The notes under the pieces are model-generated. The model did not search any database and was not told the DNA's origin. It saw only the letters and a program-made list of their open reading frames with translations. Shown here in pieces: positions 1,219 to 20,065 of a stretch of DNA of 64,000 bases; positions within the stretch are counted from its first letter, which is position 1, and each line of letters begins with the position of its first letter. The translations under genes and the position numbers were made by a program. The DNA comes from Candidatus Poribacteria bacterium (GTDB lineage: Bacteria; Poribacteria; WGA-4E; PCPOR2b), in NCBI GenBank assembly GCA_965218095.1, contig OZ244587.1:4928001-4992000 (forward strand). Direction: 5' to 3'.

Positions 1219-1253
1219 AATTTCCAATTCCATTAAGTCAGGAGGAAAGACAA

Positions 1254-2376: not shown

Positions 2377-2606
2377 GGATGGGAGACCGGCGATGCCGTG
2401 CGTCGATCAATACTTTCAGTGTATCGAACCCAGATGGGCAACCTACCCCGAAATGAGGCGAAGGCGAGAATGCATGCTTCCCTTGCATCACAGGAGCAAC
2501 CAGATCTCCGTCTTGGTGAAGCCGCTTTAGACGGCTATTTGCCCTGGGATAGCCCTGCATTTGAACCCGTCGAGAAGTTTATCAATCAACTTAGTAGAGG
2601 AATTAA

Positions 2607-4112
2607 ATGGCAGAAGCGCAGCAGTTTTTCGCTCTCGATCTCGGGGCAGAAAGTGGACGGGGTGTATTGGGGCATTTCGATGGTGAACGGCTCAAGTTAG
2701 AGGAGCTCCATCGATTTCCCAATGGAGGCGTGCGTGTGCTGAATAGCCTGCATTGGGACGTTTTGCGGCTCTGGAGTGAGATGAAGCAGGCGCTCTTAAT
2801 CTGTGCGCAGAAGAACATAGATCTGAAAGGTATCGGGCTCGATACATGGGGCGTTGATTTTGCGTTGCTCGGCAGAAACGATATGCTGCTTGGATTTCCG
2901 TACCACTATCGTGATTCGCGTACAGATGGCATGCTAGAGGAAGCCTTTCGTCGCCTACCACGGGTGGAGATTTTTGAACGAACTGGATGTCAATTCCTTC
3001 AGATTAACACGCTATATCAGTTGCTATCGATGGCGGTACATGAATTGCCGCTGATTGAGGTTGCGGAAACGTTTCTGATGATTCCCGATCTATTCAACTT
3101 TTGGTTGACGGGACGGAAAGTCTGTGAATTTACCAATGCGACGACGACGCAGTTTTACGATCCGCAGCAGCGGTGCTGGTCAAAAGAGATCTGCGATGGA
3201 CTCAGTTTGCCGTTTGACATCTTGCCAGAGATTGTGCAACCGGGCACACAACTCGGTACACTCCTCCCATCCGTTGCCGAAGAAACTGGGCTACCGGAGG
3301 TTCCCGTCATTACGCCAGCTTGCCACGATACCGGTTCAGCCGTTGCCGCGGCGCCCGCACGCGGCGAGAATTGGGCGTATATCAGCTCCGGGACATGGTC
3401 ATTGATGGGTATCGAAGTCCCTAAACCGATTCTCACTGATCAGGCGCTCGCGCTCAATTTTACTAACGAGGGCGGAGTGGAGGACACCTTCCGCTTCCTC
3501 AAAAACATCATGGGGTTATGGCTTGTGCAGGAGTGTCGTCGGACCTGGGTGCGAGCGGGCGATGAGATGTCCTATGATCGGATGACGCAAATCGCTGTGA
3601 GTGCAAAGCCTTTCGCTGCGCTGATCGATCCGGATGAGGACGCCTTCTTGCCCGCGGGTGACATGCCATCACGTATCGTTGAATATTGCAAACGCACTGG
3701 ACAAACCCTACCGTCAGACAAAGGCGAGATTGTCCGGTGTGCATTAGAAAGCCTTGCACTCAAATACCGGTGGGTTCTGGAAAAACTGGAAGCTGTCTGG
3801 GGAAGGTCGATCCATGTCATCCATGTCGTCGGCGGCGGAACACAGAATAAGTTGCTCTGTCAATTCACCGCAGATGCGACCAGGGTACCGGTCATCGCCG
3901 GTCCCATTGAGGCGACGGCGATTGGCAATATTGTGGTACAGGCGATTGCGAGTGGAACATCCCGATCTCGGGGCGGATTGATTGGCTCAATCTCTGAGGC
4001 GCGGGAGATTATCCGCCGATCTTTCGACCTCACCACTTACGAACCGCAAGATTTGGAGGAATGGGACGCGGCTTATGATCGGTTTCTGGGGATAACCGGG
4101 CTGCCATCTTAA
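2607..4112 (+). CDS. rhaB: Rhamnulokinase (FGGY family)
   Basis: ALDLGAESGRG, GLDTWGVDF, HDTGSAV, YISSGTWSLMG, FTNEGG, VGGG and GPIEATAIGN. Confidence 0.92.
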   Translation: MAEAQQFFALDLGAESGRGVLGHFDGERLKLEELHRFPNGGVRVLNSLHWDVLRLWSEMKQALLICAQKNIDLKGIGLDTWGVDFALLGRNDMLLGFPYHYRDSRTDGMLEEAFRRLPRVEIFERTGCQFLQINTLYQLLSMAVHELPLIEVAETFLMIPDLFNFWLTGRKVCEFTNATTTQFYDPQQRCWSKEICDGLSLPFDILPEIVQPGTQLGTLLPSVAEETGLPEVPVITPACHDTGSAVAAAPARGENWAYISSGTWSLMGIEVPKPILTDQALALNFTNEGGVEDTFRFLKNIMGLWLVQECRRTWVRAGDEMSYDRMTQIAVSAKPFAALIDPDEDAFLPAGDMPSRIVEYCKRTGQTLPSDKGEIVRCALESLALKYRWVLEKLEAVWGRSIHVIHVVGGGTQNKLLCQFTADATRVPVIAGPIEATAIGNIVVQAIASGTSRSRGGLIGSISEAREIIRRSFDLTTYEPQDLEEWDAAYDRFLGITGLPS

Positions 4113-4158
4113 CAGTTAAACCCCGATCAAAGATCGGGGTTTGAGGTCTATTGGTGTC

Positions 4159-4428
4159 ATGAAAAGTGTGATCATGGAAGTTGCGTATGTGTACGATAGG
4201 TGCGTCCTCCACGGCGATAAAGCCTTCCTGTTGAAGAACTTCGACTACCATCCTTTCCCGACAAGATGTCCCTATTTCGAATCCTTTGACGAGAGATGCC
4301 CGCACTTTGCCCTGGTAGATCACAATCAGCAGGGAGTGAACAATGAACTCCCGATTACGCAATACGTTTTACGCGTCACGTTTAACTTGAGTTATTGTGC
4401 CCGGCAAAGACCTACTCCAACAGATTGA
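4159..4428 (+). CDS. Possible small hypothetical protein
   Basis: Fills the intergenic gap but has no recognised motif; its 3' end runs into heptamer-like repeats and overlaps the next gene. Confidence 0.25.
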   Translation: MKSVIMEVAYVYDRCVLHGDKAFLLKNFDYHPFPTRCPYFESFDERCPHFALVDHNQQGVNNELPITQYVLRVTFNLSYCARQRPTPTD

Positions 4429-5080
4429 ACGTCGCTATCCGATAGTGGAGCAGACAATCCCTCTGACCTCCAGACACATCCGCATGACCGTTGTGAAAAA
4501 TCCAGATCATTTGCTCGAGACGTTGAGCAAAGAAGACCGGGACGGAACACTTCACCTGCCTTATTGGACATACCTGTGGCCATCTGCAATCGGTCTTACG
4601 CACTATCTCGATCAAATTGGCACATTCACAGGGCAGCAAATTTTAGAGATCGGTTGTGGGTTCGGACTCGCTGGGATTGTGGCATGTCAGAAAGGCGGGA
4701 CCGTACTTTTCACCGACTATAAAAGGGGCGCATTGATGTTTGCTCAATATAACGTCTTGCAAAACGGGTGTGCGGACAGAGCGTCCTTTGTTCAGATGGA
4801 TTGGAACGCCCCATGCCTACAGCGTCGATTCTCACGGATTCTTGCCTCAGATGTAATCTACGAGGAGAATAACTGGCAGCCAATTCTCGCGCTAATCCAA
4901 AGGTATTTGACCACAGCGGGTGAAGCCGTGTTCTCTGACCCTAATCGAGCCAACGCTTCTGGTTTTCTTGAGTTGATTGGTCGTCACGGGTTCACACACG
5001 AGAAATACGACTGCGATGTTGCCTCTGTAGATGGGTGTTCTGCCACAATCTCGGTCTACTGCGTGAGACAGACTGAATAA
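4397..5080 (+). CDS. Class I SAM-dependent methyltransferase (Methyltransf_16-like)
   Basis: PYWTYLWPSAIGL, ILEIGCGFGLAG, FTDY and ILASDVIYE motifs. Confidence 0.85.
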   Translation: MPGKDLLQQIERRYPIVEQTIPLTSRHIRMTVVKNPDHLLETLSKEDRDGTLHLPYWTYLWPSAIGLTHYLDQIGTFTGQQILEIGCGFGLAGIVACQKGGTVLFTDYKRGALMFAQYNVLQNGCADRASFVQMDWNAPCLQRRFSRILASDVIYEENNWQPILALIQRYLTTAGEAVFSDPNRANASGFLELIGRHGFTHEKYDCDVASVDGCSATISVYCVRQTE

Positions 5081-5116
5081 TTGAAATTTTCGGACTAATA
5101 AGGAGGAGTGCAAACA

Positions 5117-5827
5117 ATGTCAAAGCATGTCATGTTCATCTTGGGTGAACCGGAGTATAAGTCGGAAGTCACGATGCCGGCGATTGCCAGAGAGCTCGAA
5201 GGCAAATATAATATCACTACCAATGTCTCAATCTGCCGCGTGTTATCCGACCGGACTGACAGTCCGAGTCATGAATTCCCCGATCTCGAAGCGCTGGCAG
5301 ACGCCGACCTTGCTGTATTTTACATCCGTTTTCGGCAGATGCCCGATGAGCAGATGGAACGCATCAAGGCGTATCTGGATTCGGGACGGCCGGTGGTGGG
5401 ACTGCGGACTTCTAGCCATGCATTCCGTTATCCGGAAGACTCCAAACACCACAACTGGAATGATGGGTTTGGCCAGAACGTCTTGGGTGCGCCTTGGCGG
5501 TATCACTACGGCCATGAGTCCAGTACCGATGTAAGAATTATCCCCGAAGTGTCTGATTACCCAATCCTGAAAGGGATTCCCAGCGAATTCCATGTACGGT
5601 CATGGCTATATTATGTGCTGCCGATTACCGATACCTGCAAGCCCCTGCTGATGGGAACTTCCGTGGGCCCGAGCGGGCGAGAGGAACGGGTGGACAATCC
5701 CGTCGCCTGGACCAACACTCACAATGGCGACCGAGTCTTTTACACCTCTATGGGACATCCAGATGATTTTGAAGCCGAAGCATTCCAGGTTTTGCTGACT
5801 AACGGCATTCTCTGGGCAGTGGGCTAA
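5117..5827 (+). CDS. ThuA-like domain protein
   Basis: GRPVVGLRTSSHAF, PVAWT...RVFYTSMGHPDDF...LLTNGILWA; RBS aggagg. Confidence 0.85.
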   Translation: MSKHVMFILGEPEYKSEVTMPAIARELEGKYNITTNVSICRVLSDRTDSPSHEFPDLEALADADLAVFYIRFRQMPDEQMERIKAYLDSGRPVVGLRTSSHAFRYPEDSKHHNWNDGFGQNVLGAPWRYHYGHESSTDVRIIPEVSDYPILKGIPSEFHVRSWLYYVLPITDTCKPLLMGTSVGPSGREERVDNPVAWTNTHNGDRVFYTSMGHPDDFEAEAFQVLLTNGILWAVG

Positions 5828-5882
5828 TCTTTACTAGACTGAGTCGACTGAAACGTCAAGTTGAAACTTTCATGGGTATATA

Positions 5883-6704
5883 TCACGCTTCTTCCCACGC
5901 ACGACGAACGAAAGAGATCGCTTTTTCAAAGCCTTCTTCTCCGGTACGGCTCGCCTCCTCAATACTCAACCAACCATCGAAACCGTTGCGTTTCAAAATG
6001 GAGAAGACTTGCTTGATGGGAGACACGCCGGTGCCAACAAGGACAGGCTCAAAAACACCAGAGGCGCGAATGTCGAACGCGTGGACGACGACCACTTTTT
6101 TTATAACGGCTTCTAATAACGCTGTGGGCTCTTCGCCGATGACCAGCGGATTTGCCGTATCAAAACAGACACCCAAGGAGGTTTCAGCAAGATTGTTGAG
6201 AATTTCCAGAAAGATCTCTGCGGGCTGCGAGAAATCCCAATACTGCCAGGGCGCACCTTTAGTATGATTCTCATAAACCAAAGTCACTCCCATTTTATCC
6301 GCCTCATCAAGCGCTTGGCGGAGTCCCTCAACCGCCCAGCGAACACCCTGTTCTCGATGGATGCCGGGGTGGTTCTGCCCGGCAGTCACGCGGGCGAACC
6401 TGGCTCCCAGCGCCGCAGTCAGTCGCACGTCGGCTTTCATCTGTTCTATTTCTTGCGTACGTTGCCCGGCATCCGGGTGGGTGAAATCGGGATAACACGC
6501 TAGCATGCAAAGCTCGATACCCACTTTTTGAGCCATCTCGGAGATGGTGTTAAGCACTTGTCTCTCTCGGGTTGGGAAGAATTTCACACTGAAGTCAACG
6601 CCATCCAATCCGAGGGCAGCGGCAAAATGCACCCAATCGACAACTGATTTCTTGCCGCTAAAGATATCGTCATAGAATGAAACGGGTATACAACTTAGTT
6701 TCAT
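5883..6704 (-). CDS. Sugar phosphate isomerase/epimerase (xylose-isomerase-like TIM barrel)
   Basis: YENH, FDTAN, VGTG and FDGWLSIEE metal-binding motifs. Confidence 0.85.
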   Translation of the reverse strand: MKLSCIPVSFYDDIFSGKKSVVDWVHFAAALGLDGVDFSVKFFPTRERQVLNTISEMAQKVGIELCMLACYPDFTHPDAGQRTQEIEQMKADVRLTAALGARFARVTAGQNHPGIHREQGVRWAVEGLRQALDEADKMGVTLVYENHTKGAPWQYWDFSQPAEIFLEILNNLAETSLGVCFDTANPLVIGEEPTALLEAVIKKVVVVHAFDIRASGVFEPVLVGTGVSPIKQVFSILKRNGFDGWLSIEEASRTGEEGFEKAISFVRRAWEEA

Positions 6705-6832
6705 CGTTGAACCTTCATTTCTGTTGAGTGGGTTGGAAAAGAATCTCGATTATCATGAGCATATCATTTTTTAAAGTTTTTGTCAAACCGCAACTTCTTG
6801 AGAATTTACAAACGAACGGGGTGAAATCGAAA

Positions 6833-7261
6833 ATGAAACAACGGTCTGCTATTTTTCTCGTTGCAGTCAACTGTTTTCTGTTTGCCTGTGATGATAACGC
6901 CAGAGAGCATTAGAATCAAGGCGTTCACTACCAGGCACAAGGTAAGCTGGATGAAGCCATTGCTCAGTATAAGAAGGCGATTCGCATTGACCCGAACCAT
7001 GCACAGGCAAATTACAATCTGGGAGGCGCCCACGACATACAAGGCAAACTCAATGACGCCATTATCCGGTTCAAAACAGCCATCAGCATTGACCCTCTTG
7101 ATGCAGAAATGCATTACGATCTTGGACTGGCTTATGAGAATCAAAGTGACAATAAACAAGCCATCATGCACTACAAGGCGTTTGTCCGCCTCGCTCGCAC
7201 CTATAAATTGTATGAGGATTGTACTCCTGACCTCGAACGTCGGATACAAGAATTGAAATGA
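6833..7261 (+). pseudogene. TPR-repeat lipoprotein with in-frame TAG
   Basis: Manual translation gives MKQRSAIFLVAVNCFLFAC-DDNAREH*NQG...GKLDEAIAQYKKAIRIDPNHAQANYNLG...DPLDAEMHYDLGLAY...ELK*. The TAG at 6911-6913 sits where TPRs have Tyr. Absent from the ORF track. Confidence 0.82.
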
Positions 7262-7276
7262 AGTCTAATTCTTCGT

Positions 7277-7399
7277 ATTAAGCTGAAACATCGGGTGGGT
7301 TTAGTCGGATTGAAACAGGTAACTGGGTTTATCGATATATTCGAGTCTCATCCCGGCACGAAGGTCACGGCGATCTGTGCCATTGACTTTTTTGTTTGA
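7277..7399 (+). pseudogene. N-terminal remnant of a Gfo/Idh/MocA-like oxidoreductase
   Basis: KLKHRVGLVGLKQVTGFIDIFESHPGTKVTAICAID resembles the Rossmann start of this family and then stops. Confidence 0.5.
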
Positions 7400-7425
7400 C
7401 ATAAAAACCCATTGAGTGATATGAT
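7396..7425 (+). promoter_or_regulatory. Sigma70-like promoter for the crystallin/SPFH operon
   Basis: TTGACA-18 nt-TATGAT with a TGn extended -10, 43 nt upstream of ATG 7469. Confidence 0.5.
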
Positions 7426-7584
7426 AAATACCGCGTTATCAAGATAGATCTTAATTCCGAGGGAAGACATGCCAACCGTCATACCACGTCTCATTGCTGA
7501 GGTTTTCGAGCATACGAACTTCAGAGGCAGAAGAGGATATGTGATCGAGCCGGTGCAATTTACACGCGACATCGGATTTCAGGA

Positions 7585-7959
7585 GTATGGATAGGTAGAT
7601 TCCTTACGGGATTTTCCCCCCATCAAAACCGTGCGTGCGACTTTCACCGCACACGGCTCGCCCTGCCAATTACCGATTATCTTATACTGGTAATGCTTAA
7701 TAATGCTTTGAAGTCTTAGGCTGTCTAACTTACTGCATCACTTAAAAGATAATCTCAGCCATACTTACTTTGTATCGTTCAGAACATGGGGACGAGTTGC
7801 CAAGTATGTAGCAGGGACTTGATTTGCTCTCATTTTCCCTTAATCTGTTTATGATACATTTCAGTATGTTGACACTAGGCAGGCTTTGCATAAAATGCTT
7901 TTTCTGCCTTCCTCTCCCATATCATCTTTAAGATGACTTAGGGACTCTTTTAATCTCAC
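7585..7959 (-). mobile_element. Group II intron 3' remnant (domains V and VI), antisense to the host gene
   Basis: Reverse complement of 7659-7585 is GAGCCGTGTGCGGTGAAAGTCGCACGCACGGTTTT (DV with AGC triad, GAAA loop, AC bulge) followed by a DVI hairpin ending CCTATCCATAC. No RT ORF remains; the extent upstream of DV is inferred. Confidence 0.88.
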
Positions 7960-7961
7960 TA

Positions 7962-8837
7962 TGGTAGATCTTAGAATTAATGGTACATTTGAATAATATC
8001 GTGAAGTGTGGTTTCGGGGTGATATTCTCGGTATCGCTTGATATTGGCAAAATCGTGTTCAATCGGATTGTAATCTGGAGAATAAGGCGGTAGGAACATC
8101 AGACTCGCTCCTGAAGCCTCTATCAACTCTCGGGTCCGAGGTGTTTTGTGAAGCCGCGCATTATCAAGGATTACAACCTGTTTTGAAGTCAAACGTGGAC
8201 ATAACTGTTCAGCTAACCAGTCATTGAAATCTACCGCTTTGCAGCTCCCTTTGAACACCCGTGCCGCAATAAGTGTCGCTGTCCGGGTGCGTTGGCTTGA
8301 GATAAGTCCAAAGACTTTTTCCCCTTTGGGTGCATACCCATAACGTCTATAACTTTCGTCTCGAAACCCACTCTCATCGACATAAACAAAAGACTTACCA
8401 GAGGCTTTCACTTGTGCGAGTTGCTGAAGATACGCTTGTCGTTTTTCAGCGCATTGCTCCTTATATCCGAGACTTTTTTTCGGGTGCAACCGATATTTTT
8501 CAGCCCATACCCGATACAAGACTTTGACACACCAAAATGAGCTGCGCGCTCGGCGTAGGTCTGGTCTGGAAAATCAGCGACATGTTTTCTCAGCGCATCG
8601 GGGTCAAGGGTTCGCGGGCGACGGGGCCCTGGTTTTTGACGTTTGAGCGGGTCAGGCGCATTCAACCACTTATACAGTGTTGAGCGGGCGACGGAAAAAC
8701 GGCGGCTCGCTTCGGTCTTACCACCGCCAGCTGCGATAAAATCTAAGACGCGTTTGCGTAAATCTAAAGAATAGGCCATAATAACTATAGGATACCAGCA
8801 ATATAAGAAAATGTCTACTTATTTATAGGGTTCGCCA
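7962..8837 (-). mobile_element. IS630-family insertion sequence
   Basis: Flanked by TA (7960-61, 8838-39); imperfect terminal IRs (tggtagatct...tacatt / tggcgaaccc...gacatt); contains a two-ORF transposase. Confidence 0.88.
7977..8779 (-). CDS. IS630 transposase (orfA HTH + orfB DDE, probable programmed -1 frameshift)
   Basis: MAYSLDLRKRV HTH; YVDESG, VILDNARLH and FLPPYSPDYNPIE; A7 slippery run (T7 at 8474-8480 on +) at the TRKK/PKKS junction. Confidence 0.9.
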
Positions 8838-9938
8838 TAGTTTTGGGTCAGTGCTGACGACTCCGGGTCCTGAGTGGGGCACGATTCCCTTGATCGTCGA
8901 ATGCTATCAGCACCCAGAATACGAGGGGCGTAAAGTCACGGTCTTGCGTGATATTGCTCACACCGGAGAACTCGGTATTGAGGATGCGATCTCCTCTGTC
9001 CGCATCTTCAAGGGGCCAGACTTCCCATGCGAGGGCGCGGAAGTGATCTTCTTTGAGCATGTTGACTTCGAGGGTGCACGGCTGCCGATCCGGATGGAGC
9101 CAATGGATTACAAGAAGGAGGCACCCAATCTTCATCTGCTGCCTCAGAGCTTTGGAGATATTATTTCTTCGATAAAGATCGAGGGTTGGTCCTCCTCCAG
9201 CGAATTCACGGAACTCGTTTTTGAGGATGAATTTATCGGCAACGAGATGCGTCCTGAATGGGAGTGGGAAGATCCAAGAGGTGGAGGCGGCTGGTCAGAG
9301 CGGCAAGGTTACATGGAGATGAATGTTGAGCCGGGACAGGATCTCTGGCACGGCAACCCGCCAGGGCGAGGGGGCAATATGGATGCGCCACGCCTGCTGA
9401 TGGAGGTGGATGGCGATTTTGCCATCGAGTGCCGCATTCGTGTATCGTCACAGTTGAGAGAACATGGCGGTCTCATCGTCTGGAAGGGACCTCACGCTTT
9501 TGTCAGATTAGAAAAAACCTCTGGTCCTCACAGTTTCAGAGGCGATGTCCGATTTGAACGGCATGTCAACCGCGTTTACTCCCTCGTCGGTCGCGGTGCT
9601 GGATTGGTGAGGGTGAGGGAACTCTACTTGCGGCTTGAGCGCCGAGGCAATCTATTTTCAGGGTACGCCAGTTCTGATAGTGTCAGATGGTTAAGTTGTG
9701 GGCAAACAGTTATTGGCATGGGCGATCCGGTGAAGGTTGGGTTTCATGCGCTCTGTCCGGGAAATATTCCGCCGACGCAAACGCGATTTGAGTATTTTCG
9801 TCTCTTCAAGCGAAGGAGCGAAGCCGCTCAATACTCCCCAAGGATCGCGGAGGTTTCACAACAACGCCCTGATGGCGAAGAATATCAGCAGGAATTAGTG
9901 GACGAGCGTCGGCGTGCAATGCGTGATGTGTTCTAAAA

Positions 9939-10033
9939 CGTGATGCGTGACGAGTGATAAATGATGAGTAACGAAGAATGAGTTGCCTTTTACTCATCAC
10001 GAAATACGTATTACTCATCACGAAATACGTAAC
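9939..10033. repeat. Short heptamer-like tandem repeats (STRR-like) with a 21-bp duplication
   Basis: cgtgatg/cgtgacg units and ttactcatcacgaaatacgta x2; related tracts near 4355, 11507, 31686 and 38852. Confidence 0.6.
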
Positions 10034-10094
10034 AGTACAGTTCACGGGTGTGCAGGATCGATAGTATCTTTCAATACACATAGGAGCTCTTCCA

Positions 10095-11506
10095 ATGGCA
10101 CTGGCGCCGAGATTAGTGGTTGAAGTTTTTGAGCACATTCATTATCAAGGTCGCAGAGCAACAATTATCGATTCCGTTGCAACTACGTCGGATATTGGTG
10201 TGCATGACATCATCTCTTCGGTTAAGGTTTATAAGGGTCCCGGTTTTAACGCTTCCCCTAATTACAAGGCGATCTTCTATGAGGATGTCAACTATCAGGG
10301 ACGAAAGTTGGTGCTGCCGCCGGGATACTATCCGAGTATTCATGAGATTCCTTACAACTTCGGCGATGTGATTTCTTCCGTTGGCTTTAGCCCCGCGGCT
10401 CAAACAACGCCCCCGGATTACGGCGCAATTCCGATCGTTATCGAAGCCTTTCGCGATCTTGACTTTCAAGGTCAAAAGAGCGTTATCATGTGTGATATCA
10501 GCGACCTCAAAGAGATTGGCATGGACAATGTGATTTCGTCCCTGCGGATTCAACGCGGTCCCAATTTCCCTTTCAGTGGCTGTCAGGCGATTTTCTATGC
10601 ACAGCCAAATTTTGAAGGCAGGCGGATGAACATCCCGTTGGGTTCACGGGAATTTCAAGTGACAATACGGAGTCTTCACACACTACCTCAGTCTTTTTCA
10701 GATGTGATTTCGTCTATCAAAATTGTGCCAGTTGGGGTTTTTCGCGTCCTAATCGTCGTCGGTGACAATCTGACCACCGAGCCAGCGATTTTAGAATCGC
10801 TCCCTGAGATCGAGGGAAACAAATTTCAGTATACGACAGTTCATATTAATCCCAATCCGGATAATCGAGGCGATCCGAACAACGCCGTTAAGCTCTCCAG
10901 CATCACGCTTTCTGAATACGACATTATTTGGTTTACATAGAATGCGCCAGGCCACGATCGGGAGTATTTGTTAGAAGATGCGGAGATAGCAATCAGAGAT
11001 TTTGTGAGAAAAGGCGGGGTTGTCTGGGCATCCGCCATGGATGATAATATTATCCCTCCCGATGGCGTACACAGCACCGAACCGATGTGGCGTGGGGGTT
11101 GGCTCCCCGTGGACCGTCACCCCATTCGTGTTGTGAACTCAAGCGATATCAATGTCAGGATCACGCCCGAAGGACAAAAGACCGGTGTGTTCACCTGGCC
11201 CCATCAGGTCGATGTTGACGCATTGGTCACCGATGATCATTGGGTCACCGATGATCCGGCATATACCCGATTAGCCGTGCGCAGTGATAACGAAGATGCT
11301 GTTGGCGTCCAGTTGCGATGGATGGATATTATGTGACTTTTGCTGTGGATACCCGTGATGCACGACGCGCATCTCTCGCAAAAACGCTCATCGAAAATGT
11401 CCTTTGTTATCTTGCAAGCCTTGCGTGGCAGACCTCGCCTCGCCAACCCCTCAAAGGGCGCTATCGAACCCATTCCAATGCCGAGCGGCATATGCAGAAT
11501 GTGTGA
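10095..11506 (+). pseudogene. Beta/gamma-crystallin (4 Greek keys) + class I glutamine-amidotransferase-like domain protein
   Basis: Four FEH/YED/FRD/YAQ-xxF/YxG...ISS motifs, then YDIIWFT*NAPGHD...IRDFVRKGGVVW. In-frame TAG at 10938-40 and a frameshift near 11320 (QLRW/DGYYVTF). Confidence 0.8.
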
Positions 11507-11606
11507 AACGTGATGCGTGAAACATGAAACATAAAAGAAGGAATAATTCCCGAATTTCCTGTTTTCTCGTTCCGCTCTTGAACCGTTCATACTTTAGGAG
11601 AAGCCG

Positions 11607-13650
11607 ATGCGTTTAATCCTTGTAATCGGAATTGTTATTTTAGTCTTGGGATTAGTTGTAATGCTAGTCATCCCGGAATTAACCTCCTCTGTGGAAGGGG
11701 TCCTGCGATGGGTAGTAATTACAAATGTCTTTATTCTCTCTGGTGTTATCGCCTTCATTGCTGTCGTTTTCCGCTACAGAAAACCGAGAGCAGACGTAGC
11801 GCTCGTCCGAACCGGTGGTTGAGGTGAGAAAATCTCAATCACAGGTGGGTTGTGGATTAACACAATTATCCACGAAATCAAGGAAATTTCTCTCAATACC
11901 ATGCGAATTGAGGTCGTGCGGGAATCTCAAGAGGCATTGATTACCCTCGACTTAAACCGGGGAGACATCGAAGCAGTGTTCTATCTCAAAGTGGATCCAG
12001 TAGAGGAAGGTGTATTAAGAGCCGCTCAAGCACTTGGAGATAAGTCGATGACTCCTGAGACTGTGCGTGAATTGATTGAGCCCAAGCTAGAAGGCGCATT
12101 GAGGAGCGTCGCGGCAGAAACCGAAATCCAGGATTTGTTACAGAAACGACAGGAGTTTGCCGATAAAGTTCATGCAGCGTGCGGCGTAGACCTGAAAGAA
12201 CAAAACGGACTAACACTTGAAACGGTCTCGATCATCCGTGTGGATCAAACCCCCGTTCAAACGCTCGACCCAGAGAACCGTTTTGATGCAGTGGGTATAC
12301 GCTCAATCACGGAAATTACGGCAGACTAGGCCCGTGAGAAAGAACGGATTGTCTAGGACAAAGAGGTTGCGATTGTTCAGATTGATGTTGATGCCAGAAT
12401 TCAAAGACTGGCAGCGGAACAGGAACAGGCTTGGGCGGAATCCGATCAACAGAAGAATATCGCAATCTACGCGGCGGAAAGAGAGGCAGATACACTTAAA
12501 TTCCAGTTCGAGATGGAGCGGGGGGTGCAAGAGCGGGAATATGAGACAAAGCAGGAGGTCGAAAAAGCGCGGATTACTCAGGAGCAGACGGTTCAGGAAC
12601 GCGAAATTGAGATGGATAGGGAGGTCCAGCTTGCAAAGGTACAACAGGATCAGGTTGTTGCTGAACGTGAAATCGAGATGAACCTCATCGTTGAAACGCA
12701 GCAGATCGATCAGTCCAAAGCTGTACAACTCACAGAGATTGAGCGAACCTTAACCGTTGAGATGCAAAGGATTGAGCAGGAATCAGGTTGTTGAAATCCG
12801 GGAGATCGAGAAAACCCTTACAATTGAGAGAGCCAAAATCGCCCAAGAGCAAGCCATCTCGCTCCGTGATATTGAGCGAACGTTGGAAGTGGAAACGACT
12901 CGATTCGCCCAGGAGCAAGCGGTACAACAGCGGGAGATTGAAAAGAACCTAGTGGTTGAGACCGCCCAAATCGATCAGAACCGTCAAGTCGAGGTTACCG
13001 AAATCGACAAAATGCTGACTGTGGAGCAGACGCGTATCAATCAAGAGTTAGTCGTCATGCTCAAGGATGAAGATCGGAAGATCGATATCGCGAATAAACA
13101 ACAGGTCACCGCGGCGGCGGAGAAAGAGCAGTTACTGGCGGAAGCGGAACGGATGGGGGCGGAAGTCAATGTCACTGCAACGCAGCGCACAAGGGAGGCG
13201 GAATGGCAGCGTGATGTGGCAATAATCGGCGCGGAGGCGCAGGCGCAACCGATTGAACGTCTGGCAGATGCTATTCTCGCAGAGGCAAGGGCGAAGGCGC
13301 AAGGCGAAATGGCAGAATATGAAGCGCGAAATGTCGCTGAACAGCGTGTCCTCGTTCAGGAAGCCATTCTTGATCTCATCGAAACCTCTCCAGAGCTTGT
13401 GGAAAAACTGATGAAACCTGTCGAGAAGATCGATAGCATTAAGATTCTCAATATGGGAGGCAACGAGAACCATGTCGGCGGCGTCAATCGCAGCAATATG
13501 GGACGCCTCGCAAATACCTTGCTTGATACGGGTGCAATCTCGCCGATGCTGAAAGAGCTGTTCAACTTTGCCGATGTCGATGCCCAGCAAATTGCGGACA
13601 AAGTTGCTGAGTACCTTGCAGATTTGGTGAATCGCCCTAATAATACTTAG
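11607..13650 (+). pseudogene. SPFH/flotillin-like membrane protein with long coiled-coil repeats
   Basis: Two TM segments, VALVRTGG*GEK, ALITLD, EGALRSVAAE and NGLTLETVSI, C-terminal MKPVEKIDSIKI. Lesions: TGA 11820-22, TAG 12327-29, TAG 12354-56 and a +1 frameshift near 12780. Confidence 0.88.
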
Positions 13651-13667
13651 GAGGAGGAGCGCATTAG

Positions 13668-14991
13668 ATGCTCAGGTCTGATTCATTTACCCCGAAACGG
13701 AGACGAGCAAGGAAAAGCCGCTGTCGGACGTGCCGATCGGATAACGGGAAGCGGGTGTGTCCTGCGTTGAATGGCCTCTTAATCTGTCCAGACTGTTGCC
13801 GTGAGAAGCGGGGGAAGATTCCGGGGTGTGACCAACACTGCTGCTACTACAGCCCACTGATTCGCGCAAGCAAAATCCACTCGCCTCCTGATTTCCCGGC
13901 CCACCAGTGTTTGGTCAGCAAGTCCAATGATACCGGCATGCTCACGGTCATTGTCGCTCGTGAGCGACTTGATGGCAATCTCAGAGCGATGTTCCTCCTC
14001 CTTGATCTGTGGAAAAAGGGAATACGAGACTGTTTTGTTGACGCGAATCTGTCGAAGGAAGACCTTAAGCGACAATGTGAGAAACTAGGGAAATCTTATC
14101 ATCTCGCCGAACAACCTCCCACCGATGGAAATGAAGAAGAGATAAGTGCTGTCGATTTGCCCAAAAATACGATTGTCCTTGAGGCGGAATCCGCCGACCA
14201 AATAGATGAGGGCGTAACACCAAATAGATGAGGGCGTAACAATTGTCAAGATGGACGGCGCATCGGGTGGAAAAGCCATTGACAGCGCAAGAGGCGCCCG
14301 GGCGACGCATGAAGTTAACATTCCCAAAACCGGCAAGTGGTATGTATGGATTCGTGGGTTTTTCCCTTCCGTAGACAAGAACTCGTATTGGATCGGGATG
14401 CACAACGCAGCGCCGAATCCCCATGACCCCGCCGGAGGTGAAGGTGCCGTCAGGATATACTCAGAATACGGTGATTCCGTCAACGTGACTGAGGAACGGC
14501 CCTTCAACATCTGGCATTGGGATTCTGGGGTGAAGAACGAACCACCGCCGAACCGCTTTTTTGAGGTCAAAGCGGTGGGGACGTATAAGTTGTGGTCAAA
14601 AGGGCGGGAACCCGGATCTATATTGGATCAGATCTTGCTGACAATGGATGAGGACTTCAACGCGGAAGTGGCATCCAAAGGGAAAGCGATTCCCGTTACC
14701 ACACGGGAATCTCCATTTGAGCGAATGCCATTCGCTGAATGCCAAAAACTCATCCGCCATGCTCTGGATATCGCAACGGAAGTGAACACGGAAATTCCCT
14801 GGGAATTCCATTACTGGGGCGACACTTTGGGCGATCTCTCTAAAGTCCCCACGGAAGGTTCACTTTACAAATGTCCAAAGTGCGGTGAAGATTTGCCGCA
14901 ATCTGCTGTTGATCTCATCAAGCAACACGCCCAATCCGATGACATCCAATTTTATATCGTCTGCCGGAAGTGTGGCGGAGTGTTTGATTAG
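13668..14991 (+). pseudogene. Cys-rich (Zn-finger) protein with an inserted carbohydrate-binding-like domain
   Basis: A 22-bp tandem duplication (14198-14219/14220-14241) frameshifts one gene; removing it joins AESADQIDEGVT to IVKMDGASGGK. CxxC clusters at both ends. Confidence 0.8.
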
Positions 14992-15180
14992 TGGTTTACG
15001 GCAGCAGTATTTGGTTAAATTAGACCCCGATTGAAGATCAGGATCTGGGTCTTGGTAACCGCCCGAGCAATTATGCTTCAAAGCACTGGTCGCAATCCCC
15101 CTCTGAATCGCACCAACTCCGTTCTGGATCTCATCTTATTTGCCGCCATTCAAGCGTCGCCGAAGACTCACTGTTTTTTG

Positions 15181-15209
15181 TTGCAAATGATCCGAATCTG
15201 ATATATAAT
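15181..15209 (+). promoter_or_regulatory. Sigma70 promoter of the nuo operon
   Basis: TTGCAA-17 nt-TATAAT. Confidence 0.72.
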
Positions 15210-15296
15210 AGATACGCTCTGGGTAGCAGCAGATTTGTATAAAATAGTATTGTTCTGTCGATTGCGCAGTTTCAGGCAATTCTTTTTTTAGCCTCT

Positions 15297-15320
15297 AGTT
15301 TGTGATAAATTTCACAAACT
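15297..15320. promoter_or_regulatory. Palindromic operator, Rex-box/CRP-like
   Basis: agtTTGTGATAAATTTCACAAact is one mismatch from Rex TTGTGAA-N4-TTCACAA and an exact TGTGA-N6-TCACA; it lies between the promoter and nuoA. Confidence 0.7.
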
Positions 15321-15342
15321 CCCCTGAAAGGTTACGGAATAA

Positions 15343-15735
15343 ATGCTTTTTAATTTCGCGAATGTGCTCATCTTTTTGGTTGTTGGTTGCTTATTTGTAA
15401 CACTTAACCTCACTGTTTCTCGCTTGCTCCAAACTAGGCTGTTTATGGATGAAAAATATATACCTTATGAGTGCGGTGAGGATCCAATTGGTGATACTCG
15501 TATCAAGTTTAATGCGCGTTTCTACGTCATTGCGCTAATTTTCTTGATTTTTGATGTTGAGATTGTGTTTCTGTTTCCGTGGGGCGTTGTTTTCCGTGAT
15601 ATTGGTATTCTTGCATTCGTCGAGATGTTGATTTTCATCTTTATTCTACTGGTCGGCCTTGCCTACGTTTGGGCGAAAGGGGACCTCGAATGGATCCGCT
15701 TGATTCAGTCAGTAAGGGAGGAAAGTAACCAATGA
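15343..15735 (+). CDS. nuoA: NADH-quinone oxidoreductase subunit A
   Basis: YECGEDP and [21 protein letters not shown]. Confidence 0.96.
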
Positions 15736-16346
15736 TAATCGAAGAGAAACTGGATAAGAACATTATTGTGACCTCCATTGATGCCGTTGCCAACTGGGCA
15801 CGCGCGTCTTCTTTGTGGCCTATGACCTTTGGTCTCGCCTGTTGCGCGATCGAGTTTATGGCGACTGCCGCTGCTAATTATGATCTGGATCGCTTTGGCG
15901 CCGGTGTTCCTCGTGCGACTCCCCGTCAATCCGACCTGATTATCGTTTCGGGAACGGTCACGTTGAAAATGGCAACCCGGATTAAACGCCTCTATGAACA
16001 GATGCCTGAACCAAAATATGTCATTTCTATGGGAAGCTGCGCTACGAGTGGAGGTCCCTACTGGCAGCACGGCTATCATGTCCTGAAGGGTGTAGATCGA
16101 ATTATCCCTGTTGATGTCTATGTTCCAGGTTGCCCCCCGAGACCGGAAGCTGTACTTGAAGGTTTGATGAAGTTGCAAGAAAAGATTAAAACACAGACGG
16201 TAGCGAAACGGGCCAATATGCCTTTCTTAAAGAAACTTTTCACCAAAACGGACCTGGAGAATAATGAACAAGCAATGGCTGCAGCACAGGCTGAAGCGCA
16301 GGCACATCTCGCCGAACATGAAGAACAGGAAGAAGCCGCTGATTAA
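15732..16346 (+). CDS. nuoB: NADH-quinone oxidoreductase subunit B
   Basis: [15 protein letters not shown] and [14 protein letters not shown]. Confidence 0.97.
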
Positions 16347-16398
16347 ACTCACTAACCTTTCAAAGGTTCAATTTTAAGAAAGGAGAATTGCAACGTGA

Positions 16399-16917
16399 TT
16401 GGCAACTTTCCAAAAGCGTTGCCTTTTTTCCGTGACACCACAAGAAGTTTACGAAAAACTAAAAGATAAATTTGGAGAATCAATCCTCTCCTTTGAAGAA
16501 GCCATCGCCGATCCGTTTATCGTCGTCTCACCCGAATCGATTGCTGATGTCGCAGAATACCTTGCCGAAAATGAAGCATTAGCTTTTGATTTCCTCATGT
16601 GTTTAAGCGGCGTAGATCTTGGCGCCAAAGATTCCAATTTTTACGTCGTGTATCACCTCTACTCAATGACCCACCGTCACAAACTGGTCCTTAAAGTCAT
16701 TCTTCCTAAAGAAGAAGAACCCCACGTTTCCACCGTTGAGCATATCTGGAAAACCGCCAACTGGCATGAGCGGGAGGCGTATGATCTGTATGGGATTGTC
16801 TTCGATGGGCACAGCGATCTGCGTCGCATCTTGCTTCCAGACGATTGGGAAGGATACCCGTTGCGTAAGGATTATAAGGAGCCGGAGTTCTATCGAGGGA
16901 TGCGAGTGCCGTATTGA
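16399..16917 (+). CDS. nuoC: NADH-quinone oxidoreductase subunit C (start TTG 16399 or GTG 16432)
   Basis: ANWHEREAYDLYGIVFDGHSDLRRILLPDDWEGYPLRKDY. Confidence 0.95.
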   Translation: MATFQKRCLFSVTPQEVYEKLKDKFGESILSFEEAIADPFIVVSPESIADVAEYLAENEALAFDFLMCLSGVDLGAKDSNFYVVYHLYSMTHRHKLVLKVILPKEEEPHVSTVEHIWKTANWHEREAYDLYGIVFDGHSDLRRILLPDDWEGYPLRKDYKEPEFYRGMRVPY

Positions 16918-16943
16918 TGTACGTTGGGAGGGAGCAAAAAACG

Positions 16944-17183
16944 ATGGCGCTGTCAGAGCAGTATCAACAACAGATTATCAATAGACTTAAACAATTGCCA
17001 GAGGAAAAATTAGCCGAGGTTGTCGATTTTGTGACATTCTTAAAGGACAAATATCAACCTTGCACAGAGAAAAAAATAGTCAAATTTGGCGGTCTATAGA
17101 AAGGGTTTGAACCTACGGATAAGGGAATTCAAGCGGCGCAGAAAGAAATGTGGCACCATCTTGATACAAAGGAAATACCATGA
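16944..17183 (+). pseudogene. DUF2281-like antitoxin with in-frame TAG
   Basis: LKQLPEEKLAEVVDFVTFLKDK...KFGGL*KGF (TAG at 17097-99, probably Trp); the read-through stop overlaps the next ATG (ATGA). Confidence 0.7.
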
Positions 17184-17545
17184 GTGAGCAAGTTACTATC
17201 CAGGTATCCGACCGGGTAATACATCATGCAACGCATACAGCAGCGCAGAATCAACGGCGAATTGAGGAAGTATTGTCAGACTGGTTAGAGGGCGTCATCA
17301 CTGAAATGCCGGTAGAAGCGATGCCAGATGAGGAAATATTAGCACTTGCGGAACTTCAACTTACGACGGAGCAGCAGACAACCTTGAGCGACTTGTTGGC
17401 GCAGAACCGGGAAGATACCCTCAATGACGAGAGACGCCGTCAACTAGATGAGTTGATGGGCGCCTACGAACGCGGTCTACTTCGCAAGGCGCAAGCGCTT
17501 CGGGTTGCTGTGCAACGAGGTTTACGCGAACCGCTACGGCCATGA
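17180..17545 (+). CDS. Hypothetical protein, putative antitoxin partner of the HNH nuclease
   Basis: LSDLLAQNRE.TL...ERRRQLDELM..YERGLLRKAQAL pattern; translationally coupled to the HNH gene. Confidence 0.7.
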   Translation: MSEQVTIQVSDRVIHHATHTAAQNQRRIEEVLSDWLEGVITEMPVEAMPDEEILALAELQLTTEQQTTLSDLLAQNREDTLNDERRRQLDELMGAYERGLLRKAQALRVAVQRGLREPLRP

Positions 17546-17949
17546 GCTCAACTATTGTGTCTGCCACCATACGTCAGCGTGTGCGAGAGGCTGCATGTGA
17601 CCGTTGTGGTTACTGTCTCAGTTCACAACAGTATGTGATGGGGAAATTGGAAACCGAACACATTATTCCACTGGCTCGGGGCGGGAGCAATGATGAGTCA
17701 AACCTGTGGCTTTCTTGTAGTTTGTGCAACCGTTATAAGGGGGCTCAGATTGCGGGAGGTGACCCATATAGCGGTGAAACGGTGGCGTTGTTCAATCCAC
17801 GTACTCAGGTCTGGAGCGAACATTTTCGCTGGAGTCGGGACGGAGCACATATCCTTGGCTTAACGCCCATTGGTCGGGCAACTGTTGAAGCGCTTCGACT
17901 CAATAACGATGTAGCGGTATTAGCCGGCTGGCATCCCCCCGAGGTGTAA
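17542..17949 (+). CDS. HNH endonuclease
   Basis: RCGYC, EHIIPLARGGSNDESNLWLSCSLCNRYKG and LFNPRTQVWSEHFRW. Confidence 0.88.
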   Translation: MSSTIVSATIRQRVREAACDRCGYCLSSQQYVMGKLETEHIIPLARGGSNDESNLWLSCSLCNRYKGAQIAGGDPYSGETVALFNPRTQVWSEHFRWSRDGAHILGLTPIGRATVEALRLNNDVAVLAGWHPPEV

Positions 17950-18080
17950 CGTGAAGTTTCCTTTCATTACGACCTCCGTTAATGTGGAAGAAGAAGAAAG
18001 CCAAAGATGCAATCATTTACTTGTTTCGTGAAGAAAGAGGGAACCTAGTCTATTTTGCTTGATAGTAAAGAGGAACTTGT

Positions 18081-18446
18081 ATGGAAGCAAATATAGTTAA
18101 TCTGCAAACTCTGTTTGAACAGCAGGTCTCATATCAAATTCCTCAATTCCAGAGACGCTACGAATGGAAAGAGAAGAGGCAATGGCAACCTCTCTGGGAA
18201 GATGTACGTAAGGCTGCAATGCGCTTTCGCAACAAGGAAGGGCACGATAAAATACGACCACACTTTATGGGAGCCATCGTCCTACAACTGCAACAAAGCA
18301 ATACTGGGGAGGTAACGAAAAGACTGGTAGTTGATGGACACAGCGATCTGCATTGCATCTTGCTTCCGGACGACTGGGAAGGGCACCCCATGCGTAAGGA
18401 TTATAAAGAGCCTGAGTTCTATCGAGGGATGCGAGTGCCGTATTAA
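18081..18446 (+). pseudogene. Chimera of a DUF262 (GmrSD/ParB-like) N-terminus and a nuoC 3' end
   Basis: YQIPQFQRRYEW...LWED...HFMGAIVL...LVVDG is followed by HSDL..ILLPDDWEGHPMRKDY in place of the expected QQRL. Confidence 0.85.
18333..18446 (+). repeat. Second copy of the nuoC 3' 114 bp (direct repeat of 16804-16917)
   Basis: Manual alignment: 12 mismatches in 114 nt, 8 of them silent. Confidence 0.92.
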
Positions 18447-18456
18447 TGCGTGAGTA

Positions 18457-19240
18457 ATGATAGAAGACCAAATACGAATAACCCAAATACGACGGATTTG
18501 CGATGAGCACCGTATAACAACACTTGTGCATTTTACCCGGATCGAAAATCTATCTAGCATTCTGCAAAAAGGTGTATTGAGTCGCAGTATTCTGGAAACA
18601 AGCGGACAACAGTTTTTCTGGAATGATTCAGATCGGGCTGATGGACATCCAGAAGCAATTTGCTTAAGCATTAGTTTTCCAAACTATCGCATGTTCTATT
18701 CAATTAGATAAGGAGAAGGAGAATACTCAAGGGGTTAACGATTGGCAGTGGGTTGTTTTACTTCTTGATGCAAAAATGTTGTGGGAGTTGGACTGTGCAT
18801 TTTGTCAAGAAAATGCCTCATCTAACGCTGTTCGTTATATTCCATTGGGGGATAGAAAAAAACCTGATGCACTAAAAGGTATGGTAGAAGATTACCACGC
18901 TATTAAGCGTCAATCTTTACAAATACCCAGCGACTACCCAACGCATCCCCAAGCAGAAATTCTGGTATTTGACCAAATTCCTGCACGGTATATCAACGAA
19001 GTCCATTTTTTTACTAATACTGCTTTGGAGCAATGGTTGGCTAGCAGCCAAGCAGCTTTTTCTCGAACAGTTTCCGGTGAACCGCGCTATAGCTATCAAC
19101 GAGAATATTTCTATCCTAGATGTGATTACCTAAAATGGCAGTCTGCTGGTTCGGACAACAATGATATATCTGAGGTTGACGAGCATCAGGATTTTTGTGA
19201 GAATTCCGAGCCATGTATAGAGAAGGATATACCTTTTTAG
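18457..19240 (+). pseudogene. darT: DarT (DUF4433) ssDNA ADP-ribosyltransferase toxin, DarT1 type, frameshifted
   Basis: LVHFTRIENLSSILQKGVLSR, AICLSISFPNYRMF and catalytic PTHPQAEILVF; one extra base near 18709 (AGA-T-AAG) splits the gene. Confidence 0.85.
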
Positions 19241-19252
19241 GAGGTGAGAGGA

Positions 19253-20065
19253 ATGGCAAAACGCCCTATTTTTACCCCTGATTTCAGCGATTTTCCTTAT
19301 GTTAAAGCGGTGGACATAGAGTTTCGATGGTATTCTGGTTTTGCAAAATCGCAGCTCCAAAAATCCATCGCCTCCCTACACAAAGCCGCTGAGGATAAAG
19401 GCATTGCTCCAATTTTGGAAATCTCAGGAAAATCTACTTCAGCCTTGGGTGTTTCATTGAGTGCTTTTAATCTCCCTTTAAAAACGACAAACGGACAAAC
19501 GTTGAGCGTGGAATGTGCCTATCAAGGAAGCAAGGTGTTTGAAAACGGTGGCCCCTACCAAGATCTGTATTCGGTCTCGAGTCGAGTGGCGAAAACCGAC
19601 GAGCGGTTGCGGAATTCGGGGGAGCTAATTGCTTTTGACTTCTTCGGTGAAGACTTTCCCATAGAACCCCAAACAGCTTTCTACGACTGGTTATACCTGA
19701 CTGCGCTTTGGCAGAAAAATCCAAATATAGCAAAAGAAGAGCTTGAACCGTTTGAAGGGTTTTCAGATATAGTCTTTAATCCGCAACGATCTCTCAATTG
19801 TCAAGCACGTACCGCCGCGCTTTTTGTTTCGTTAAGCAAAGAAGAGTTGCTTGATGAACAGTTTCTCAATAAGGATTGTTATCTTGAACGAATGGCTTGC
19901 GACTTGGATTGCAACTCAGATAGTCGGAACCGACAAACCGAGCTGACTGCACACCAACTCTATCTATGGCCATTCACTGAAAAATTTAAGGCTACTAAGT
20001 TCCTGTTAATCAACCTAATCGGGTTAAAGGAAATTCATCATGGCAGTACCACAACCGGAAAGTAA
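19253..20065 (+). CDS. DarT1-associated NADAR family antitoxin
   Basis: MAKRPIF, LEISGKS...LGVSLSAFNL, SVECAYQGSKVFENGGPY, AFYDWLY and FSDIVFNP..SLNCQAR; directly downstream of darT. Confidence 0.82.
   Translation: MAKRPIFTPDFSDFPYVKAVDIEFRWYSGFAKSQLQKSIASLHKAAEDKGIAPILEISGKSTSALGVSLSAFNLPLKTTNGQTLSVECAYQGSKVFENGGPYQDLYSVSSRVAKTDERLRNSGELIAFDFFGEDFPIEPQTAFYDWLYLTALWQKNPNIAKEELEPFEGFSDIVFNPQRSLNCQARTAALFVSLSKEELLDEQFLNKDCYLERMACDLDCNSDSRNRQTELTAHQLYLWPFTEKFKATKFLLINLIGLKEIHHGSTTTGK

Follow-up and report, generated by a model that had tools for sequence, protein, structure and literature searches.

Genome G000 of Candidatus Poribacteria (closed, 6.35 Mb, 50% G+C) carries a broken gene cluster at positions 7469-14991 of the window, the whole stretch of 64,000 nucleotides analysed here (G000:C1:4928001-4992000). 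The cluster is a pseudogenised copy of a Poribacteria-specific, vertically inherited four-gene operon, comprising genes for two beta/gamma-crystallin proteins (g1 and g2), a flotillin (g3) and a Cys-rich protein (g4). The original prediction, made from the nucleotide sequence, had proposed that the open reading frame (ORF) fragments of this region collapse into four co-oriented genes, had assigned their domains and had called for their repair, an ortholog search and a neighbourhood comparison. All of this has been carried out. Eleven pieces were joined into g1 to g4 with three-frame translation and intact orthologs, the domain make-up was confirmed by Pfam profiles and structure comparison, and intact syntenic orthologs were found. 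Eight lesions are spread over all four genes. The features are, in window coordinates:

7396-7425, plus strand: sigma-70-like promoter match (TTGACA, 18 nt, TATGAT, with TG), 44 nt 5' of the g1 start, consensus match 11 of 12.
7469-7591, plus strand: g1 5' fragment, codons 1-41, first beta/gamma-crystallin Greek-key motif, 67-82% identity to ortholog residues 1-39 (seven loci with an upstream g1).
7582-7961, minus strand: 3'-terminal fragment of a group II intron, 380 nt, antisense to g1, domains V-VI at 7585-7661.
7960-8842, minus strand: insertion sequence (IS) of the IS630 family, transposase as two overlapping ORFs (8408-8779 and 7977-8519).
8851-9936, plus strand: g1 3' fragment, crystallin motifs 3-4 and DUF1349 (ConA-like), 71-82% identity to orthologs from residue ~102.
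10095-11506, plus strand: g2 pseudogene, four crystallin motifs and a ThuA/GATase1-like domain, TAG at 10938-10940 and a 4-nt deletion near 11320.
11607-13650, plus strand: g3 pseudogene, transmembrane hairpin, SPFH domain, 22-residue-repeat stalk and Flot C-terminal domain.
13668-14991, plus strand: g4 pseudogene, N-terminal 8-Cys motif, beta/alpha core, insert resembling carbohydrate-binding modules (CBM) of families 6/35, C-terminal CxxC...CxxC zinc ribbon.
7469-7594, 8851-9936, 10095-10940, 10968-11336, 11318-11506, 11607-11822, 11850-12329, 12513-12794, 12757-13650, 13668-14231 and 14251-14991, plus strand: the eleven ORF pieces.

The intergenic gaps g1/g2, g2/g3 and g3/g4 measure 158, 100 and 17 nt here and 24, 26 and 11 nt in the intact relative L023. 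A single promoter for all genes had been proposed as well. A scan yielded 14 sites, not above the 9.9 ± 2.5 of shuffled sequences, so this part stays a guess based on the consensus match upstream of g1. Intact paralogs of the cluster elsewhere in G000 were not found by tblastn with the eleven pieces, which gave two weak partial matches (27% and 37.5% identity).

The frame of g1 is interrupted at 7582-8842 by the intron fragment and the IS630-family element. It resumes past the IS at ortholog residue ~102, so that about 62 codons (~40-101 of the intact gene) are gone. Intact orthologs of ~461 residues contain four Greek-key motifs and DUF1349. The DUF1349 profile (PF07081) is matched by the fragment with 43.4 bits (cut-off 32.4) and by an ortholog with 39.0 bits, while the 3' fragment alone reaches 19.1 bits for Crystall (PF00030), under the cut-off of 25. 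The intron fragment matches RF00029 with 66.1 bits (gathering score 40, E 1.3e-11), and a second copy, 99.5% identical, lies at genome positions 2598744-2599123. A reverse-transcriptase ORF was found beside neither copy; with only 380 nt present, the group II element is therefore a fragment. The second copy was ruled out as the full-length intron parent, as no long ORF with a YADD motif occurs there. Several further domain V/VI-like pieces are scattered elsewhere in the genome. The IS630 element (HTH_Tnp_IS630 89.2 bits, DDE_3 103.1 bits) cuts the intron fragment at 7960 and has six more genomic copies of 99.2-99.5% identity.

In g2, a conserved Trp (consensus IIWFTWNAPGHD) has become TAG at 10938, and the 4-nt deletion near 11320 is defined against five orthologs. 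The Crystall profile is matched by the fragment with 58.8 bits and by intact orthologs with 62.3-62.8 bits. An AF2 model of an intact ortholog (predicted local distance difference test, pLDDT, 86.6; predicted TM-score, pTM, 0.81) served for structure comparison. Its crystallin module (residues ~1-212) matches the Ciona crystallin 2bv2 in VIA (Z 14.4, root-mean-square deviation (rmsd) 1.3 A, 83 of 83 residues), besides clostrillin 3snz (Z 11.4) and Protein S 1nps (Z 11.2). The signature Y/FxxxxY/FxG occurs at ortholog residues 12, 119 and 168. The Ca2+-binding motif of beta/gamma-crystallins reads N/D-N/D-x-x-S/T-S. A motif x-D-x-I-S-S is present in all four Greek keys, the Ser positions of three motifs being kept in 35 of 35 orthologs. 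Motif 3 has the canonical start, with N/D at position 1 in 35 and at position 2 in 31 of these sequences. The double-crystallin module is shared with g1 at ~47% identity.

The fold of the g2 C-terminal domain (model range 214-450) is nearest to ThuA-like 1t0b (VIA Z 15.1, rmsd 3.1 A over 200 residues), followed by GATase1-like 3rht (Z 15.0) and 2gk3 (Z 14.9), with rmsd 2.9-3.1 A over 190-200 residues. It also resembles the GIFT domain of IFT52 and the trimerisation domains of GH42 in the same comparison. True amidotransferases are marked by a catalytic Cys-His-Glu triad. Neither Cys nor His is found among the invariant or near-invariant columns of 47 aligned C-domain sequences, hence the domain is not an amidotransferase. 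The domain has no Pfam family, and GATase or ThuA profiles gave no match at cut-off. Its sequence is rare: a search of 1.84 billion proteins gave matches in only 42 cluster representatives (E up to 0.001). A sequence search of solved structures with g2 gave weak crystallin matches only (E 0.005 and worse) and none for the C-domain.

Variant architectures have been observed in both crystallin proteins. The g1-type protein P0113 (655 aa) carries, between crystallin module and DUF1349, a stretch that resembles roughly one half of g4 and is probably its CBM-like insert. P0128-P0155 are g2-type proteins of 684-685 aa; in P0139, the match to the ThuA-like domain is split into three stretches. These variants suggest module shuffling within the protein set.

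The flotillin gene g3 contains three stop codons, TGA at 11820 (ortholog Arg) and TAG at 12327 and 12354 (ortholog Gln in both cases). Like the stop in g2, each of them is explicable by a single transition. A 1-nt insertion near 12783 is defined against four orthologs. The fragment matches Band_7 with 53.5 bits (cut-off 23.6; ortholog 33.0) and Flot with 73.6 bits (cut-off 27; ortholog 62.7). It is not a FloT equivalog (NCBIfam NF058507, 44 bits versus a cut-off of 700). Orthologs begin with two hydrophobic helices and carry basic residues after the second (TM2), consistent with a hairpin that places the SPFH domain on the cytoplasmic side. The central stalk of ~380 residues has a 22-residue (2 x 11, hendecad) periodicity. 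Ortholog lengths range from 679 to 1386 residues. The longest (locus L011 9280-13440, genome G001) has a stalk expanded by 88-residue (264-nt) modules and shows the corresponding 88-residue period. The gene for NfeD, the usual partner of SPFH proteins, had been noted as missing. Indeed, no PF01957 match lies at the locus; the matches of G000 are at 2,081,555-2,082,291, ~2.86 Mb away from the cluster at ~4.94 Mb, and in the carrier genome G010 NfeD lies at 1.02 Mb and the operon at 4.28 Mb.

The frameshift in g4 is a perfect 22-nt tandem duplication (14198-14241). Removal of one copy restores an open frame of 433 codons, which equals the ortholog length. The N-terminus of the protein is very basic and contains eight Cys arranged as CxxC-x8-C-x8-CxxCC-x9-C-x3-C; in total there are 16 Cys with zinc-type spacing (8+4). 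The insert is similar to CBM structures in Foldseek (E about 1e-6; 1gmm, E 2.4e-6, TM-score 0.67 on the target; 5fui, TM-score 0.73) and in VIA (best Z 12.2 to 2cdo, rmsd 2.5 A, 122 residues; range rmsd 2.4-2.5 A over 122-123 residues, model 165-320). Pfam CBM families gave no match for g4 of this lineage. Other lineages carry at the same position Laminin_G_3, an F5/8-type-C (discoidin) domain or nothing, some relatives have a C-terminal DUF1080 (3-keto-disaccharide-hydrolase-like) domain instead, and short forms of ~240 residues occur without any insert. For the core, no Pfam family was found at E up to 1 in eight g4 relatives, DUF7837 and RING-type matches lying far below their cut-offs. With the whole g4 model, every match listed by VIA and Foldseek falls on the insert (~155-340), so that the core was barely probed. 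The best ESM Atlas feature score for a short form was 0.78, below the useful range. An NCBIfam scan of the cluster gave only sub-threshold FloT and Cys-rich peptide matches. The complex prediction of g4 with g2 scored 0.00, which is no verdict and counts neither way.

The lesions recur in independent material. Of the sampled words of the stretch, 82-92% occur in public runs from at least three studies, and contigs of four runs have been compared with the window:

Run X1, one contig, 8810-15100: no differences.
Run X2, 8838-15100: eight substitutions, 22-nt duplication absent, 17 nt deleted at 11221 (in g2).
Run X4, 8813-15100: 19 substitutions, 22-nt duplication absent.
Run X10 (RNA library), five stretches of g2 and g3: 0-1 differing letters per stretch, the uncovered parts being uninformative.

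All X2 and X4 differences lie outside the four stop codons and the two indels of g2 and g3. The junction of g1 and intron at 7582 is likewise bridged by contigs of X1, X2 and X4 (7400 to 7614-7648). The lesions of g1 to g3 are thus common to three populations and are not assembly errors. The claim that the system is dead in this genome holds accordingly, with all four genes broken. The state of g4 differs by strain: the duplication is shared by the window copy and X1, X4 has a nonsense codon (TGG>TGA at 14520), and in X2 the gene is apparently open. Non-synonymous and synonymous strain differences number 5:3 in X2 and 12:7 in X4. Given 4330 non-synonymous and 1277 synonymous sites, the ratio of the per-site rates (pN/pS) is ~0.5, with small counts. 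Inactivation hit g1, g2 and g3 first and g4 last, independently in different strains; the loss of the operon is in progress in G000 and proceeds stepwise. The X10 contigs are a weak hint of transcription of the dead operon, as they carry no strand information and DNA carry-over is possible.

Full-length g2 orthologs without internal stops occur in 18 of 40 same-order relatives, with 66-76% identity. The gene is absent from the other 22, namely 16 of the genus labelled 'g4', one of genus 'g6' and five of family 'f3'. Orthologs of g3 (at least 65% identity) are found in exactly the 18 genomes with g2, and g2, g3 and g4 are present or absent together. A distinct flotillin paralog (36-42% identity) exists in part of the genomes, among them 9 of the 16 belonging to genus 'g4'. 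The order g2-g3-g4 is contiguous at 17 of the 18 loci. At the exceptional locus, in G001, the short-form g4 without insert is situated 7 kb further on, adjoining nuoA, and is separated from the 1386-residue g3 by a two-component regulator pair on the opposite strand. Directly 5' of the operon, g1 is found at 7 of 18 loci.

Beyond the order, the g4 family is present in 142 of 176 genomes of the phylum (E up to 1e-10) and absent from genus 'g4' (0/20), family 'f3' (0/11) and the genera 'g6' and 'g23'. Among ten more distant loci, the full order g1-g2-g3-g4 is conserved in L031 (family f8, another order) and L036 (family f10, another class). At three further distant loci g3 and g4 are adjacent, and the contigs end there. 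Lack of synteny among orthologs had been named as a refutation of the module, and these loci do not refute it. Genes nuoABC follow g4 at 11 of the 18 same-order loci, across two families. Other flanks are ordinary core genes which differ by family (mutS, glutamate synthase, pyrF, a menaquinone gene). In family f2, a gene for a secreted M6-type peptidase with a C-terminal domain of the type IX secretion system type follows g4, without nuoA (L024 12066-14279; L019, L020, L025, L026). The start of this ORF is probably mis-set, since it overlaps the 3' end of g4.

Five genomes lacking the operon (G003, G007, G019, G005, G029) showed no remnants within ~9-12 kb 5' of nuoA. The only pieces present in G005, a g1-like one of 62 residues and one of the flotillin paralog, are on other contigs. 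In three pairs of intact orthologs, the ratio of non-synonymous to synonymous substitution rates (dN/dS) is 0.02-0.16 for g2, g3 and g4. Named homologs (121, 127 and 31 found) are all from Candidatus Poribacteria, save one labelled 'bacterium', and sequence identities follow taxonomy from family to class. Synteny, spread, restriction and constraint show an operon that is old within the phylum, passed on vertically and lost repeatedly. Where present, the module is subject to strong purifying selection, yet it is dispensable, because whole genera are without it.

Taken whole, the best explanation is a Poribacteria-specific, vertically inherited operon that is pseudogenised here and is being lost stepwise; its probability is estimated at roughly 0.8. 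For the function of the intact form, the most likely picture is tentative, at somewhat under even odds: a flotillin-built cage or scaffold in the cytoplasm whose partners are lectin-like and which some lineages can do without. In that picture, g3 would insert in the inner membrane via its N-terminal hairpin, with the SPFH domain in the cytoplasm, and would oligomerise into a cage or scaffold like other SPFH proteins. The hendecad/22-residue repeat stalk would form the cage wall, the height of which would depend on the number of stalk modules. The products of g1, g2 and g4 may be soluble cytoplasmic clients or co-scaffolds, located at or inside the scaffold. The double-crystallin module of g1 and g2 might act as a shared docking or Ca2+-responsive part, while specificity could reside in lectin-like domains, i.e. 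DUF1349 of g1, the non-catalytic ThuA/GIFT-like domain of g2 and the exchangeable insert of g4. The latter protein would be a zinc-binding protein with a lineage-swapped lectin-like insert.

A cytoplasmic location had already been proposed from the sequence. At that level it stands: the orthologs of g1 and g2, as stated for the crystallin proteins, and also those of g4 have neither a signal peptide nor a transmembrane segment and begin straight with folded domains, only g3 has hydrophobic segments of the transmembrane type, basic residues follow TM2, and the 16 Cys of g4 are of zinc type. The suggested Ca2+/glycan responsiveness would be in keeping with the x-D-x-I-S-S motifs and the lectin-like folds.

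Several points weigh against the scaffold reading. It has been derived for the intact proteins from predictions and gene content. At 11 of 18 same-order loci g1 lies elsewhere in the genome, and g4 is found without an adjacent flotillin in L032, L033 and L034. The co-occurrence counts make the support look stronger than it is, since related genomes do not count as independent. For the core of g4, neither a fold nor a family is recognisable, and the protein could be a zinc protein that binds nucleic acids instead of a partner of the scaffold. Lectin-like domains have no obvious ligand in the cytoplasm. Finally, only crystallin motif 3 has the canonical N/D-N/D start; motifs 1, 2 and 4 have Q/N/H/D-D, G-D and G/S-D before x-I-S-S.

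The strongest competitor, although rather unlikely, is a carbohydrate-sensing or -processing unit, in which g4 would be a zinc-finger regulator with a lectin-like sensor insert, g1 and g2 would act on sugars and the flotillin would only serve as tether. The very basic N-terminus and the 8+4 Cys spacing of g4 fit a regulator, and the alternation of its insert between CBM6/35-like, LamG, discoidin and 3-keto-disaccharide-hydrolase-like domains fits a sugar sensor. The fold of the g2 C-domain and the bona fide ThuA and xylose-isomerase-like genes just upstream in the window point the same way. However, the g2 C-domain lacks both the invariant Cys or His and the Pfam ThuA match, g4 has short forms without an insert and matches no DNA-binding family in Pfam or NCBIfam, and the two upstream genes are not conserved neighbours at other loci.

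An extension of the scaffold reading appears quite unlikely. Tall cytoplasmic cages, with a height set by 88-residue modules, would enclose Ca2+-binding crystallin-lectin proteins and the zinc protein as cargo and would represent a new membrane-bound micro-compartment found in Poribacteria alone. Internal compartmentation has once been reported for this phylum.

A stress or dormancy coat is improbable. Protein S and spherulin 3a are microbial beta/gamma-crystallins which act as Ca2+-assembled coats under stress or in dormancy, and Protein S is also devoid of a signal peptide. By analogy, the crystallins would assemble with Ca2+, while flotillin and g4 would serve release or envelope assembly. 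The conserved crystallin folds with Ser-containing Ca2+-type motifs and the missing signal peptides of g1 and g2 agree with such a role, but their close linkage in one operon with a zinc protein and a flotillin that faces the cytoplasm does not; flanking genes offer no sporulation or cyst context, and nothing points to export.

Anti-phage defence, or a mobile accessory island with the g4 insert as diversifying sensor, is very improbable. The lineage-wise swapping of the insert, the absence of the cluster from whole genera, and the mobile elements and DarT-NADAR module nearby in the window would suit it. Against this, PADLOC returned no family for the four intact orthologs at E up to 0.05, the position directly 5' of nuoA is kept at 11 of 18 loci in two families, core genes flank the cluster, the identities follow taxonomy from family to class, and dN/dS is low (0.02-0.16).

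That the genes are functional, the breaks being sequencing or assembly errors or recoding (selenocysteine, read-through, programmed frameshift), is largely refuted and hardly credible: one stop is a TGA and RNA-library contigs cover parts of g2 and g3, but the same stops and indels recur in three studies, orthologs have Arg (not Cys or selenocysteine) at the TGA and Gln, Gln and Trp at the three TAGs, g1 is short of ~62 codons through intron fragment and IS, and strains carry further, different lesions at a pN/pS of ~0.5.

Further observations concern the surroundings of the cluster. Directly 5' of g1, a small gene for a tetratricopeptide repeat lipoprotein (6833-7261, plus strand; signal peptide ending LFAC) has an in-frame TAA at codon 27 (6911-6913) and is probably a further pseudogene. 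The upstream ThuA gene (76.9 bits) and a divergent gene for a xylose-isomerase-like TIM-barrel protein occupy window positions 5108-6704; neither is a conserved operon neighbour in other genomes. Downstream, an insert of ~3.1 kb (16914-20065) splits nuoC and nuoD, which are direct neighbours in L014 and other relatives. It encodes a DUF2281 antitoxin-like protein, an HNH endonuclease, the C-terminal half of a truncated DarT and a complete DarT1-type NADAR antitoxin, besides two ORFs that match no family. No tRNA genes were found in window positions 1-20000.

Taken alone, the locus in G000 is a set of ordinary pseudogenes. Its relevance results from the intact relatives: most sponge-associated Poribacteria keep the cluster intact, and a phylum-wide flotillin stands in a tight operon with three partners not previously linked to flotillins in the sources searched. 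SPFH/flotillin scaffolds occur in all domains of life, and the clients they hold are known in few cases, e.g. FtsH for HflK/C. The discrete modules of stalk length and the lineage-exchanged binding domain make the relation of flotillin and client testable with a small defined gene set. The copy in G000 is a natural experiment on the dispensability of the operon, with a visible order of decay across strains. Comparison of carriers with non-carriers living in the same hosts could give a lead to the function and, should the micro-compartment exist, the natural knock-outs (G000 and the lacking genera) could reveal its purpose.

The literature search found no description of the cluster, subscription-journal papers and supplements being outside its scope. 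Combinations of Poribacteria with flotillin, SPFH, band 7, stomatin or crystallin gave nothing relevant among the papers listed, DUF1349 with crystallin gave nothing, and betagamma-crystallin with flotillin led only to the toad protein beta-gamma-CAT. A match to a characterised operon, the second refutation foreseen, was not obtained either, as Pfam, NCBIfam and PADLOC were without a system-level match. The literature and family libraries searched contain no description of this set of partners, of the modular stalk or of the restriction to one phylum.

Among known systems, bacterial flotillin/SPFH operons with NfeD, such as floT-nfeD2 and floA-nfeD of B. subtilis, likewise encode a membrane-anchored flotillin (Band_7, Flot, hairpin) together with dedicated partners. 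The poribacterial locus differs from them in the absence of NfeD, in partners of crystallin and zinc-binding type, in a stalk of 22-residue repeats of up to ~1000 residues, and in its distance from FloT (44 bits, cut-off 700). The operon pspA-ydjGHI (samGHI) of B. subtilis is described as encoding an SPFH protein and operon partners that form an interdependent membrane-associated complex; the SPFH protein YdjI is soluble, is recruited by the membrane proteins YdjG and YdjH and in turn recruits PspA (PMC8581546). An SPFH protein encoded with operon partners is common to both systems, whereas the poribacterial flotillin has its own transmembrane hairpin and its partners are soluble, without transmembrane segments. 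PspA-family proteins were not detected by Pfam among the four gene products or 14 flanking products.

SPFH cages supply the model for the proposed scaffold. They can enclose clients on a membrane patch within a coiled-coil wall, flotillin-1/2 forming a 44-mer cage and HflK/C a 24-mer enclosing FtsH, as reported in PMC11260169. The domain order of SPFH, coiled-coil wall and C-terminal oligomerisation domain is alike. The predicted poribacterial helical region is several times longer and varies by 88-residue modules, and its candidate clients have no relation to FtsH. The double Greek-key domain and the signature Y/FxxxxY/FxG link g1 and g2 to microbial beta/gamma-crystallins (Protein S, spherulin 3a, M-crystallin, clostrillin). 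Putative Ca2+ motifs of the form x-D-x-I-S-S are present as well. Unlike in those microbial proteins, two crystallin domains are fused here to a DUF1349 or a ThuA-like domain and are encoded in an operon with a flotillin.

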